A stretch of 64,000 nt of DNA from an uncultured Candidatus Peribacteria bacterium (GTDB lineage: Bacteria > Patescibacteriota > Gracilibacteria > UBA1369 > GWF2-33-10), in assembly GCA_964511025.1 (NCBI GenBank), contig CAZEDK010000001.1:24191-88190 (forward strand), written 5' to 3'. The position numbers and the translations under genes were made by a program. Below are positions 39,778-43,594 of this stretch, in pieces. The notes beneath the pieces were generated by a model. The model saw only the letters and a program-made list of their open reading frames with translations, had not been told where the DNA came from and ran no database searches. Each line of letters opens with the position of its first letter. Positions within the stretch are counted from its first letter, which is position 1.

Positions 39778-40548
39778 ATGCCCCCAAAAGTCGGAATAAT
39801 ATTTACGGAAGGAAACAATCGAGATCAGGAAAGCTCTTATGCATTTGAAACTGCTGGAGCTGCAACTGAGCTTGTTTACTTGAATGAACTTAAAAACAAA
39901 GAAAAGAAATTAGACGATTATCAGATTTTGTTTTTACCTGGTGGGTTTACTTACGGGGACGATTTATTCTCAGCAAAAATTTGGGCTGCGAAATTAATGG
40001 CTTATTGCGAAGATCAATTAGCTAAATTTATTAACTCTGACAAACTTATAATTGGAGTGTGTAATGGATTTCAATGTTTGGTTCGACTTGGACTTCTCCC
40101 TTACGGCAATCTTGGAAAAATCGAAGCAACACTGACAAATAACGCTTCAGGACATTTCGAAGGAAGATGGATCAATGCAAAAATTGAAAAATCAAATTGT
40201 ATATTTACAAAAGGAATGGAAGGCAAGATATTAAGACTTCCTACATCTCACTGCGAAGGCAGATTTCTAGCACCTGAAATAGATTTGGAAAAAATAGAAA
40301 AATCAAATCAGGTTGTTATGCGTTATGTAGATGAAAATGGGAATCCAACACAAAATTATCCGCAAAATCCCAATGGATCAACGAATGCCATAACCGGTAT
40401 ATGTTCGCCAAATGGAAAAGTTTTTGGACTGATGCCTCATCCTGAATGCAATACAAAATGGAATCATTTTCCTAATTGGAATAATAAAAATGAAAGAGGA
40501 GGAGAAGCTTTGGAAATATTTCAAAATGCAGTCAGTTATTTTAAATAA
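39778..40548 (+). CDS. purQ: Phosphoribosylformylglycinamidine synthase glutaminase subunit PurQ
   Basis: LPGGFTYGDD, GVCNGFQ (nucleophile Cys) and MPHPE are class I amidotransferase and PurQ signatures. Confidence 0.93.
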   Translation: MPPKVGIIFTEGNNRDQESSYAFETAGAATELVYLNELKNKEKKLDDYQILFLPGGFTYGDDLFSAKIWAAKLMAYCEDQLAKFINSDKLIIGVCNGFQCLVRLGLLPYGNLGKIEATLTNNASGHFEGRWINAKIEKSNCIFTKGMEGKILRLPTSHCEGRFLAPEIDLEKIEKSNQVVMRYVDENGNPTQNYPQNPNGSTNAITGICSPNGKVFGLMPHPECNTKWNHFPNWNNKNERGGEALEIFQNAVSYFK

Positions 40549-41120
40549 TGAAGTTTACAATTGCAATTCTTGCCTCGGGAGGTGGAACTGATGCTCCATC
40601 AATTATTGAAATGTGTAAGCAAGAAAATATACATGTTGCATGTATTTTCAGCAATAAACCAAAGAATGGCGCTCTAGAAAAAGCAAAATTTTATAATATT
40701 GAAGGCGTTTATCTCGATGCAAAAGGTAAAACAAGAGAACAATATGACAAAGAAACTGTGAAAATTTTACAAGATAGAAATGTAGACCTAGTATGTTTAG
40801 TTGGATATATGCGAATTCTTAGTCCGTACTTTGTTCGTCAATTCCCAAATAAAATTTTAAATGTGCACCCGTCACTAATCCCAAAATATATAGGCATGAT
40901 GGGAGATGATATTCACAAAAAAGTAATAGAAAATGGAGATAAAGAAACTGGCATGACAATTCATATAGTAGATGAAGATGTTGATACTGGTGAAATCATC
41001 TGTCAAAAATCTGTTAAGGTTGGCAAGGCTGAAACAGTAGAATCATTGAGAAAAAAAGTTCAGGATTTAGAGAAAAAATGGTATCCGGAAGTAGTGAAGG
41101 ATTTTTTCAGGGTGTTTTGA
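40548..41120 (+). CDS. purN: Phosphoribosylglycinamide formyltransferase PurN
   Basis: ILASGGGT, LNVHPSLIP, and GMTIHIVDEDVDTGEII. The start overlaps the purQ stop (TAATG). Confidence 0.92.
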   Translation: MKFTIAILASGGGTDAPSIIEMCKQENIHVACIFSNKPKNGALEKAKFYNIEGVYLDAKGKTREQYDKETVKILQDRNVDLVCLVGYMRILSPYFVRQFPNKILNVHPSLIPKYIGMMGDDIHKKVIENGDKETGMTIHIVDEDVDTGEIICQKSVKVGKAETVESLRKKVQDLEKKWYPEVVKDFFRVF

Positions 41121-41172
41121 CGTTGAGACTGTAGATTATCATTAAGATTCAAAGAACTTGCAGTAACTTCAC

Positions 41173-41216
41173 ATATTAGTGTATACTGTACTCATGAGTA
41201 CAGTATACACTAATAT
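41173..41216. promoter_or_regulatory. 44-bp perfect palindrome centred on the probable AbiEi start codon (candidate operator or RNA hairpin)
   Basis: ATATTAGTGTATACTGTACTCA|TGAGTACAGTATACACTAATAT, checked base by base. The centre lies between 41194 and 41195, and the ATG is at 41194-41196. Confidence 0.6.
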
Positions 41217-41763
41217 AACAGGAAAAAGAATTGCCATTCTTGCCAAAATGAACGAAGAAATTTTTCACATTCATGATCTTGCTTTATTATGGAGAATTAA
41301 AGATAAAAACCTAGTTCACACTACCCTCAAAAGATATTGCAAATACGGAATTATAAATCGTATTTACAAAGGCTTTTATTCACTTAAAAAAACTATAGAT
41401 CTTGATCCTTATTTGCTTGGGATAAAAGCCATACACAATTATGCATACATAAGTACGGAAACTATACTCGTAAAAGAGGGCATAATTAGTCAAATCATAC
41501 CAAAGATAACTTTAATAAGCTCTAAATCCACAAAATTTCAAATAGGATCAAACAACTATGCAAGCAGGCAATTAAAAGATATTTTTTTATATAATTCAAC
41601 AGGTATTGAAGAAAAAAATGGGATACAAATAGCTACAAAAGAAAGAGCAATCGCAGATCTTTTATATTTCAACCCAAGAGCATATTTAGATACTCGAGAT
41701 CTAATAAACTGGAAAAAAGTTAAATCCATTCAAAAAGAAATAGGCTACACTTCAAATCTTTAA
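41194..41763 (+). CDS. AbiEi-family type IV antitoxin (transcriptional regulator)
   Basis: Sits immediately upstream of an AbiEii toxin gene. The winged-helix-like N-terminus and size (about 190 aa) fit AbiEi. The start is GTG 41179 (track) or ATG 41194. Confidence 0.75.
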   Translation: MSTVYTNITGKRIAILAKMNEEIFHIHDLALLWRIKDKNLVHTTLKRYCKYGIINRIYKGFYSLKKTIDLDPYLLGIKAIHNYAYISTETILVKEGIISQIIPKITLISSKSTKFQIGSNNYASRQLKDIFLYNSTGIEEKNGIQIATKERAIADLLYFNPRAYLDTRDLINWKKVKSIQKEIGYTSNL

Positions 41764-41778
41764 ATTTTATAAATACTT

Positions 41779-42528
41779 ATGATTACACCAAATCCACACG
41801 ATGCAATACACAAAGCTTGGCTCTATAGATTACTTATTAACCTAAATGAAAATGAAATTATAAATAGAATGTATGCTTTCAAAGGGGGAACCTGTGCAGC
41901 TATGAGAGGTTTACTAAATAGGTTCTCAGTCGATTTGGATTTTGAAATAATAGAATTTATGACAGAAATAGAAATGCTAACTTTTCGTAAGGAATTAGAA
42001 AAAATCTTCAACAAACTAAACTTAAAAATCAAAGATCAAAGCAAAACAGTACCACAATACTTTTTAAAATATGAAAACAAAGAAAATCAACGAAATACAA
42101 TTAAATTAGATTTCATACCAAAAACTGCTAAATCAAATGAGTATGAGTTAGTAAGATTCCATGAAATAGATAGAATAATAAATTGTTATACTATTGAAAC
42201 AATGTTTGCAAACAAGCTAGTAGCTATAATTGATAGATATGAAAAACACAAAATAATTGCAGGGCGAGATCTTTACGATATCCATTATTTTTTTATTCAA
42301 GGTTTTAAGTTTAACGAGCGAATAATAAAAGAAAGAACCAAATTAAATACAGTAAAATTTTTTCAAAAATTAATAAGTTTCGTAGAAAAACAAATAACTC
42401 AAACTATAATAACCCAAGATTTAAGCTATCTCATTGAAGCAAAGGAATTCCAAAAAATAAGAAAAACTCTCAAAGAAGAAACCTTGATGTTTTTAAAAGA
42501 TCAACTTATCCTACAATCATCCAAATAA
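41779..42528 (+). CDS. AbiEii/AbiGii-family nucleotidyltransferase toxin
   Basis: FKGGTCAAMRGLLNRFSVDLDFE is the nucleotidyltransferase motif of AbiEii (GG…S.D.DF). 249 aa. Confidence 0.88.
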   Translation: MITPNPHDAIHKAWLYRLLINLNENEIINRMYAFKGGTCAAMRGLLNRFSVDLDFEIIEFMTEIEMLTFRKELEKIFNKLNLKIKDQSKTVPQYFLKYENKENQRNTIKLDFIPKTAKSNEYELVRFHEIDRIINCYTIETMFANKLVAIIDRYEKHKIIAGRDLYDIHYFFIQGFKFNERIIKERTKLNTVKFFQKLISFVEKQITQTIITQDLSYLIEAKEFQKIRKTLKEETLMFLKDQLILQSSK

Positions 42529-42550
42529 TATATACTAAATACTTTAAAAA

Positions 42551-43594
42551 GTGGCAACATACGCAGAAGCTGGCGTTGATATTGAAAAAGGCGACAAATG
42601 TTCAGCCCTTGCTTATGCTGCCGCGAAAAGAACTTTTGCAGGTCGCGAAGGTAAAATTGGATCTGGAGTTGTAATCGAAGGTGGCTTTACCGGAATGATG
42701 GATTTTGGTGATTTTTATATTGTTCAGAATTGTGACGGAGTTGGCACAAAGACTCTGGTTGCAAAAATGATGAACAAATATGATACACTTGGTTATGATC
42801 TGCTGGCAATGGTTGCAGATGACATGATTGTAGTTGGAGCTGAATGTATTTCCATTACAAATACTATCGACATATATCCGGCTGATGAAAATGCTATTTG
42901 CGAATCAATGAAAGGCCTTGAAAAAGCATGTTTAGAAGAAAAAATTGTAATTCCTGGCGGAGAAATTGCAGAACTCAGCGGGATTATTGAGAAAGGCGCT
43001 TTTAGCTGGAATACTGATGGAATTGGAATTTTGGAAAAAGATAAATATATTGATACAAAAGATATTAAACCTGGAGATCTTGTGATTGGACTTGAAAGTA
43101 GCGGTATACATTCAAATGGCTTAAGTTTAGCTAGATATGTGTTGAGAGAAAAATATGGAGAAAATTGGGCAAAAGAAGATTTTGGGAATGGAAAATTCTG
43201 GGGAGAAGTTATCCTTACGCCAACAAAAATTTATCACAGAGCTATTCTTGGTCTTACTGGAGAATACAAAGAAGCAAGAAAAGTGGAAATAAAAGGCATT
43301 TGTCATATAACAGGAGGTGGAATACCTGGCAATTTACCAAGAATTCTAAAAGCAACAGGATTCGGTGCAAATCTAGATAACTTAATAGAACCGCAAGAAG
43401 AGTTTAAAAAATTAATAGAAATCGGCAAGGTATCGCGAGCTGAAGCTTATAAAACCTGGAATATGGGAATAGGTATGGTGCTTGTTATAGATCCAAAAGA
43501 TGAAGAACTGGTAAAACATCATTTTATGACAAAAAACATCAAAGCTCAAAAAATTGGCGTAATTACAAAGAAAGAAGGGATTTTTATTAATTAA
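42551..43594 (+). CDS. purM: Phosphoribosylformylglycinamidine cyclo-ligase PurM
   Basis: YAEAGVDIEKGD, CDGVGTK, DDMIVVGAE and SSGIHSNGLSLAR. GTG start. Confidence 0.93.
   Translation: MATYAEAGVDIEKGDKCSALAYAAAKRTFAGREGKIGSGVVIEGGFTGMMDFGDFYIVQNCDGVGTKTLVAKMMNKYDTLGYDLLAMVADDMIVVGAECISITNTIDIYPADENAICESMKGLEKACLEEKIVIPGGEIAELSGIIEKGAFSWNTDGIGILEKDKYIDTKDIKPGDLVIGLESSGIHSNGLSLARYVLREKYGENWAKEDFGNGKFWGEVILTPTKIYHRAILGLTGEYKEARKVEIKGICHITGGGIPGNLPRILKATGFGANLDNLIEPQEEFKKLIEIGKVSRAEAYKTWNMGIGMVLVIDPKDEELVKHHFMTKNIKAQKIGVITKKEGIFIN

Follow-up and report, generated by a model that had tools for sequence, protein, structure and literature searches.

An AbiE module with a palindrome over its first start codon lies between purN and purM

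We analyzed a 64,000-nucleotide stretch, here referred to as the window, of the genome of an uncultured Candidatus Peribacteria bacterium (assembly GCA_964511025.1, contig CAZEDK010000001.1, positions 24,191 to 88,190 of the forward strand). Within it, two open reading frames (ORFs) at 41194 to 41763 and 41779 to 42528 lie between the purine biosynthesis genes purN and purM, and a palindrome at 41173 to 41216 covers the start codon of the first ORF. A preliminary description made from the sequence alone had read the ORFs as an AbiEi/AbiEii pair sitting physically between purN and purM and the palindrome as a perfect 44-bp repeat centered on the antitoxin ATG, and had offered three roles for the repeat, i.e., an operator, an mRNA hairpin hiding the start codon, and the scar of an insertion event. 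The readings of the ORF pair and of the repeat as such were borne out using PADLOC for both proteins, Pfam for the toxin, AlphaFold and Foldseek for the antitoxin, and an inverted-repeat search for the palindrome.

The downstream ORF (41779 to 42528, + strand) encodes a 249-amino acid DUF1814 nucleotidyltransferase toxin, AbiEii, based on matches to the PADLOC AbiEii model (5.3e-22) and to Pfam PF08843 (1.8e-21; 77.6 bits versus a cut-off of 22.5), in which profile positions 14 to 225 of 238 are covered. A sequence search against PDB gave weak matches of this protein to the nucleotidyltransferases 4O8S and 4OK0. The upstream ORF (41194 to 41763, + strand), abiEi, encodes the antitoxin and is matched by 18 PADLOC AbiEi models, the best of which (PDLC02255) gave an E-value of 2.4e-25. 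A PDB sequence search with an AbiEi profile returned nothing, and a fold search was needed. The AlphaFold model of AbiEi, generated with 71 orthologues as input, has a mean predicted local distance difference test (pLDDT) score of 90.7; residues 1 to 7 are without regular secondary structure, with residues 1 to 3 at a pLDDT of <50, and residues 8 to 18 form a helix. Foldseek ranks 1 to 4 for this model were occupied by 6Y8Q, the Streptococcus agalactiae AbiEi, which came first with an E-value of 5.9e-6, and by 1ZEL (Rv2827c), with 186 to 216 aligned columns. The two genes are on the same strand with the antitoxin gene first, and 15 nt separate the abiEi stop codon from the abiEii start codon. 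In orthologous loci, abiEii follows abiEi in 69 of 73 cases, mostly with a spacing of −35 to +28 nt (mode, −4). The family of the toxin, the fold of the antitoxin, the order of the two genes, and the putative operator with its inverted repeats identify the two ORFs as an AbiE module, for which toxicity, phage defense, and co-transcription are predicted.

Three start codons were considered for abiEi. The helix of residues 8 to 18 contains the invariant R12 and, therefore, the start codon must precede codon 8, where the ATG at 41194 is the only in-frame ATG. The next ATG (41250) was rejected because R12, the nearly invariant L16, and the helix itself are all encoded upstream of it and because the orthologues share the ATG at the dyad. 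The GTG at 41179 was rejected because it lies just upstream of the predicted −10 hexamer (41182 to 41187) and, hence, ahead of the predicted transcription start.

The palindrome (41173 to 41216; no strand assigned) consists of the arms ATATTAGTGTATACTGTACTCA (41173 to 41194) and TGAGTACAGTATACACTAATAT (41195 to 41216), each of 22 nt, which are 100% complementary and have no spacer between them. The dyad center falls between A41194 and T41195, i.e., within the ATG at 41194 to 41196. No longer perfect palindrome is present in this 1.56-Mb genome with a GC content of 32.6%, and the runner-up has arms of 18 nt. A search of the whole genome for the half-site found no second copy, and 22 complementary positions are expected, by estimate, about 2e-6 times per genome at this base composition. 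Based on the short runner-up, the single-copy half-site, and this expectation, chance is excluded as the origin of the palindrome. The only other match to the half-site, with three mismatches, is a chance match inside a nucleotidyltransferase coding region on contig C9, and we rejected the idea that the half-site belongs to a repeat family or to the end of a mobile element. As the preliminary description had proposed, we also predicted the fold of the repeat: the 91-nt RNA from 41150 to 41240 folds with −30.8 kcal/mol (z = −6.4) and the 44-mer as single-stranded DNA with −17.2 kcal/mol (z = −8.2). An Rfam scan of the palindrome gave chance hairpin matches only, far below the gathering scores.

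The dyad is conserved at the same promoter position in orthologous loci

We compared the locus with 7 close orthologues found in the same order and, in a second step, with 80 loci drawn from a collection of species-representative genomes. The orthologous loci share 43 to 61% protein identity and come from Peregrinibacteria, Gracilibacteria, Moranbacteria, Saccharibacteria, WWE3, Parcubacteria, and Anaerolineales/Chloroflexi. Among the 77 orthologous loci with a usable start, 74 have the same dyad beside the abiEi start, so that the comparison of repeat position suggested earlier places it at the same promoter position in nearly all of them. The family consensus spans about 40 bp and reads GTT-N4-TAT(A/C)CTGTAC-N6-GTACAG(G/T)ATA-N4-AAC. 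In the window, its core is TATACTGTAC-N6-GTACAGTATA (41182 to 41207; no strand), with position-wise conservation of up to 2.0 bits. The outer elements, also without strand, are ATT at 41175 to 41177, where the family has GTT (positions −20 to −18 relative to the dyad center), and AAT at 41212 to 41214, where the family has AAC (+18 to +20); ATT and AAT pair with each other, and the window copy differs from the family by this symmetric double change.

The two halves of the dyad change together. In an ungapped alignment of 72 dyads, 72.7% of the pair cells are complementary in register 0 versus 30 to 50% when the arms are slid by 1 to 3 nt, and the covariation score is 0.213 versus 0.143 for shuffled alignments, with none of 500 shuffles reaching 0.213 in a test that is inflated by related sequences. 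Covariation is found at −10/+10 (A:T in 29 loci and C:G in 15), −9/+9 (C:G in 44 and A:T in 13), and −7/+7 (G:C in 54 and A:T in 7).

Based on the position of the start codon relative to the dyad, the 74 loci fall into three classes. In class A (35 loci, including that in the window), the ATG spans the dyad center, its A is the predicted +1, and the protein begins with M-S-T. In class B (25 loci, mostly from Chloroflexi), the ATG is located 2 nt later than in class A, i.e., 1 nt after the center, and the N-terminus is M-Y-R-I. In class C (14 loci), the ATG is located 10 to 28 nt downstream of the promoter-dyad unit, and the residues encoded by the right arm are missing from the protein. The ATG is, therefore, at most 1 nt from the dyad center in the 60 loci of classes A and B. 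Because the spacing between promoter and dyad is fixed while the ATG moves, the dyad is tied to the promoter and the predicted transcription start.

Three of the loci have features of their own. In a Chloroflexia metagenome-assembled genome (L137; CAVPJC010000001), the abiEi orthologue is part of a single 459-amino acid ORF (1495 to 2871) with no separate AbiEii match downstream; this ORF may be a fusion, or the partner may come from a different family. In L078 (CAYRJF010000052), the orthologue that begins at 1501 is broken after 47 codons and is probably a pseudogene, although it has kept an intact promoter-dyad unit, in which the 18-nt arms differ by 3 mismatches. L080 (JBHHYD010000035) has a second, distinct palindrome ahead of the cassette promoter, about 84 nt upstream of abiEi; its 23-nt arms match perfectly (ATACAAAAAAGAACTTGTCCTCA tg TGAGGACAAGTTCTTTTTTGTAT), and it resembles a terminator that acts in both directions.

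A −10 box predicted in the left arm suggests a leaderless transcript

The letters at dyad positions −13 to −8 make up a −10 hexamer of the type TAT(A/C)(C/A)T at 72 of the 73 loci examined, most often TATCCT (25 loci), TATACT (21 loci), or TATAAT (19 loci). A −35 hexamer that agrees with TTGACA at 5 or all 6 positions is located 16 to 19 nt (mode, 17) upstream in 46 of the 73 loci versus 2.3% of shuffled flanks, and it is a perfect TTGACA in 28 loci. In the window, the predicted −10 hexamer TATACT (41182 to 41187, + strand) lies in the left arm, 6 nt short of the ATG, and the predicted −35 hexamer TTGCAG (41158 to 41163, + strand) is located 18 nt upstream of it. Across the family, the distance from the −10 hexamer to the ATG is 6 or 8 nt in 60 orthologues.

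With the −10 box in the left arm, transcription is predicted to start at the A of the ATG (41194, + strand), and the resulting mRNA would be leaderless. This A is the seventh nucleotide after the hexamer, which is the canonical place of +1 and directly precedes the dyad center. There is no space for a Shine-Dalgarno (SD) sequence in front of the abiEi start, and no structure is predicted for the initial 27 nt of an mRNA that begins at 41194. The abiE message, thus, probably begins at the ATG itself. The centering of the dyad on the start codon would then follow from its center being the predicted transcription start and from most members of the family being leaderless.

A crude call of long ORFs across the genome gave 884, of which only about 3% have an SD-like motif (GGAG, GAGG, or AGGA) at −16 to −5. 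We also observed a small excess of −10-like hexamers that end exactly 6 nt before an ATG (26 versus a background of about 14). Together, these two observations suggest SD-independent initiation and the presence of some leaderless genes in this genome.

Letters of the putative operator in the right arm are read as abiEi codons

The right arm of the palindrome corresponds to the first seven abiEi codons (M-S-T-V-Y-T-N). All three classes conserve the outer GTT/AAC pair (−20 to −18 and +18 to +20), and its right-hand element (AAC or AAT) is read in a different way in each of them: it is the Asn7 codon in class A, as in the window, it spans GAA-CTn in class B, where the frame is shifted by 2 nt, and it lies in the non-coding leader in class C. 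This conservation in three different reading contexts indicates that the constraint is on the nucleotide sequence and not on the protein. Asn7 is conserved among class A proteins, and the leadered class C proteins simply do without the N-terminal residues that the right arm encodes. Together with the lack of regular structure in residues 1 to 7, this supports that the N-terminal peptide of AbiEi is largely set by the operator.

The palindrome is probably the operator of the abiEi-abiEii operon

AbiEi proteins studied in two species bind inverted repeats at their own promoters. In S. agalactiae, two AbiEi monomers cooperatively bind two 23-bp inverted repeats that are 3 bp apart and repress transcription; these repeats reach from the −35 to slightly beyond +1, with transcription starting 26 nt ahead of the ATG (PMC3985639, PMC7319586). 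Rv2827c of Mycobacterium tuberculosis represses its own promoter by binding four repeats of 23 bp, which straddle this promoter together with the transcription start (PMC7319586). Because the known AbiEi operators are 23-bp inverted repeats over the promoter, a dyad of two 22-bp arms at the abiE promoter fits an AbiEi operator. Of the three roles proposed earlier, the operator is the one we favor: the dyad follows the gene into about 70 unrelated contexts with its register kept and its halves covarying. Based on these comparisons, we consider it likely that the palindrome serves the abiEi-abiEii operon as its operator and that it is fused to the core promoter and the start codon.

In the mechanism that we propose, RNA polymerase would start at or next to A41194 and generate a leaderless abiE mRNA from which the toxin would be translated by coupling or re-initiation after abiEi. 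AbiEi itself, which has a winged helix-turn-helix N-terminal domain, is the presumed ligand of the dyad. By analogy with the S. agalactiae protein, two AbiEi monomers would occupy the two half-sites of 20 to 22 bp and, by covering the −10 box and the transcription start, would switch the operon off (negative autoregulation).

Several observations weigh against this assignment. With regard to the protein, the ORF at 41194 to 41763 has no match in Pfam, its AbiEi models included, and it scores 59.9 bits (2.5e-16) against NCBIfam TAA_AbiEi, below the cut-off of 150. With regard to the promoter, the −35 hexamer in the window is weak, with 3 of 6 matches, and the TGn extended −10, a motif of the family consensus, is absent. 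The layout also departs from that known for S. agalactiae: the register differs, with the left repeat on the −10 instead of the −35, there is no 3-bp spacer, and transcription is predicted to start at the ATG and not 26 nt before an ATG that is preceded by a ribosome-binding site. By eye, the half-site resembled the repeats IR1 and IR2 of S. agalactiae, but this likeness failed in position weight matrix (PWM) scoring, in which the family half-site showed no similarity to either repeat (p = 0.95 and 0.61). Covariation between the two arms is equally expected of an RNA hairpin. Finally, the assignment does not account for the perfection of the repeat in the window, where 22 of 22 pairs are complementary versus a family median of about 14 of 22.

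The RNA hairpin is the alternative that fares best, although we regard it as unlikely, whether as the main function or as a second layer insulating the cassette. According to this explanation, the 44 nt would fold in read-through transcripts from purQ-purN into a hairpin of 20 to 22 bp with the AUG at its apex, which would block abiEi translation and perhaps attract a double-strand-specific RNase or stall the polymerase. Read-through is plausible because the gap between the purN stop codon and the palindrome is 52 nt and contains no terminator-like site, and the predicted hairpin is very stable, with the free energy given above. This hairpin, located inside an operon, is also the strongest among the 73 family members, and the covariation of the dyad fits RNA pairing as well. 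Against an RNA function stands the −10 box in the left arm at 72 of the 73 loci, which implies that the cassette's own transcript starts at the dyad center and cannot hold the left arm. Moreover, most orthologues have only about 14 of 22 pairs, no U-tract follows the stem, and no Rfam family comes near its gathering score. Hairpin strength is also unrelated to the presence of a co-directional upstream gene across the family (mean free energies of −11.7 versus −12.3 kcal/mol); similarly, longer palindromes, as predicted for insulation where a co-directional gene lies upstream, were looked for, and no difference was found across the family.

Less probable still is that the dyad is bound by something other than AbiEi alone, i.e., by a host regulator or an AbiEi-AbiEii complex, or that it is recognized as an extruded cruciform instead of as a linear duplex. 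A 44-bp perfect palindrome can extrude under supercoiling (−17.2 kcal/mol for the DNA hairpin), and AbiEi and AbiEii form a stable complex according to a recent preprint. However, a signal that depends on structure only would not need a stem sequence conserved at up to 2 bits per position, neither repression nor the band shift was affected by the toxin in S. agalactiae (PMC3985639), and the co-occurrence of the dyad with the AbiEi clade across phyla favors a binder encoded by the cassette.

Very improbable, and rejected here, is the insertion scar of the preliminary description, or a recombination site, in which case the palindrome would be the junction of cassette entry between purN and purM, e.g., a hairpin-type site or a target duplication. 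The order of the genes near purN and purM does vary among relatives. However, the palindrome belongs to the cassette's own promoter in the orthologues, where it lies at the same distance from the −35, at or at most 28 nt upstream of the start codon, in 74 loci with unrelated flanks and is, thus, internal to the cassette. Moreover, it is not repeated at the far end of the cassette or elsewhere in the genome, and no recombinase gene lies next to it.

Combining the favored operator with an RNA layer leads to a broader proposal that we put forward tentatively, as we find it rather doubtful. The segment of about 60 nt that holds the −35, the −10, the dyad, and the ATG may work as an expression unit of its own, independent of the host and insulated from its context, which would serve as promoter and operator at the level of DNA, would need no ribosome-binding site given a leaderless mRNA, and would bury the AUG in a hairpin on foreign read-through RNA. 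If so, the antitoxin and the coupled toxin would be made only from the cassette's own self-repressed transcripts. Such a unit would explain how one AbiE clade spread between phyla of the candidate phyla radiation (CPR) and Chloroflexi and how the cassette can sit within a purine biosynthesis cluster, and it would be a case of an operator that dictates the N-terminal peptide of its own repressor.

Surroundings of the cassette and other features of the genome

The cassette is flanked by purQ and purN upstream and by purM and ilvD downstream. The formyltransferase gene purN (40548 to 41120, + strand; Pfam PF00551, 1.9e-51) has a start that overlaps the purQ stop codon. The AIR synthase gene purM (42551 to 43594, + strand; Pfam PF00586 and PF02769) begins with a GTG 22 nt after the abiEii stop codon; this GTG is the first possible purM start because of an in-frame stop codon at 42545 to 42547.

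The preliminary description had assumed that purN and purM are normally adjacent, and this premise fails in the lineage. Among about 30 genomes of the same order, only one (G009) has a contiguous purQ-purN-purM. In the nearest relative, which is from the same family (G001), ilvC precedes purM and two small ORFs lie between purM and ilvD; in another genome (G039), an ORF on the opposite strand separates purN and purM; and a metagenome contig with a 70%-identical purN has the order purL-purQ-[two ORFs]-purN-clpB. Insertion of the cassette into a formerly contiguous purN-purM pair is plausible.

Small or orphan ORFs were observed in relatives at differing junctions of these genes, i.e., between purM and ilvD in L005 (G001, contig C29; 2550 to 3421), between purN and purM on the opposite strand in L025 (G039, contig C9; 2587 to 3492), and between purQ and purN in L144 (2488 to 3866). 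In this order, accessory genes seem generally to enter at such junctions between the biosynthetic genes.

A promoter-like site (TAGAAA-16-TATAAT; 10 of 12 matches) is located at 42383 to 42410, toward the 3′ end of abiEii and about 140 nt ahead of purM. This site could make purM transcription free of repression by the cassette; purM may be transcribed by read-through from purQ-purN, from the self-repressed abiE promoter, or from this internal site.

The genome contains about 10 AbiEi homologues. The nine in addition to that described here are located at C23:10391-10885, C61:520-945, C61:3494-3781, C40:4786-5256, C10:37975-38424, C6:31886-32299, C53:4525-4944, C72:2029-2232, and C13:32432-32911 (contig:positions). 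The same operator was looked for at these nine homologues and was not present; they have other palindromes (arms of 15 nt at C61:3450-3480 and arms of 17 nt upstream of the copy on C13) or none. The unrelated inverted repeats at two paralogues suggest operator diversification.

Perfect palindromes on GTAGAGACAAA...TTTGTCTCTAC with arms of 14 to 17 nt are dispersed over at least seven contigs (C61:167-194, C60:3117-3144, C36:16744-16771, C30:15179-15212, C4:19945-19974, C14:35343-35374, and C81:86-117). They look like a repetitive extragenic palindromic (REP)- or miniature inverted-repeat transposable element (MITE)-like element.

Comparison with known AbiE and leaderless systems

AbiE is a widespread toxin-antitoxin (TA) and phage defense family, which was reclassified as type VII in a 2026 preprint. 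Its regulation has been dissected in two organisms only, both with leadered transcripts and with operators upstream of the coding sequence. Full-text searches of one literature library found no paper on a leaderless or start-codon-centered AbiE operator. Our comparison delimits an AbiE clade distributed over CPR phyla and Chloroflexi in which the promoter, the putative operator, and the start codon form one fixed unit, with half of the operator in coding sequence. Relative to the systems studied, this unit has a single zero-spacer dyad, the left half of which lies on the −10 and the right half of which lies in coding sequence, and a transcript that is predicted to be leaderless.

The AbiE system of S. 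agalactiae (6Y8Q; Dy et al. 2014, Beck et al. 2020) shares with that in the window the antitoxin-first bicistron, the two-domain AbiEi fold, and the DUF1814 toxin, as well as two inverted half-sites of about 22 to 23 bp over the core promoter and transcription start, both of which are predicted in the window. In contrast to S. agalactiae, where the repeats are separated by 3 bp and have 4 mismatches over 23 bp, those in the window have no spacer and are perfect over 22 bp. The right half-site is non-coding in S. agalactiae, whereas in the window it makes up the seven initial abiEi codons; in addition, the two genes overlap by 4 nt in S. agalactiae and are separated by the 15-nt gap in the window. 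The two AbiEi proteins are about 18% identical.

Rv2827c-Rv2826c (MenAT family; 1ZEL) is related by structure, with Rv2827c at Foldseek rank 3 (TM-score of 0.57, normalized to the query), and it involves an autorepressor that binds 23-bp inverted repeats straddling the promoter and transcription start, as is proposed for AbiEi in the window with its 22-bp arms. Unlike in the window, there are four repeats, arranged in two pairs with 13-bp gaps and bound with negative or no cooperativity, all of the repeats are upstream of the start codon, and the C-terminal domain of the protein is larger.

Leaderless autoregulated repressors are known from lambda cI transcribed from pRM, from the C-protein genes of restriction-modification systems, and from M. 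tuberculosis TA transcripts, which are mostly leaderless (PMC10491246, PMC4824078, PMC8485053). These systems belong to different protein families than AbiEi. As proposed for the unit described here, however, their repressor genes yield leaderless mRNAs, and the operator lies against or across the transcription start, which brings promoter, operator, and start codon together in a compact unit. To our knowledge, the dyad is not centered on the start codon in any of these three systems, and no half-operator in coding sequence constrains the N-terminus of the protein.

The family described here offers a testable 40-bp consensus operator, and classes A, B, and C, together with the covarying half-site variants, constitute a natural operator series for AbiEi specificity. 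It also provides a candidate for leaderless translation in CPR bacteria, found here in a genome that is nearly without SD motifs, and an annotation rule that uses the dyad to position the abiEi start codon. These results leave the general understanding of AbiE function as it was; compared with the systems above, the arrangement in the window would be an architectural variant of a known regulatory principle.

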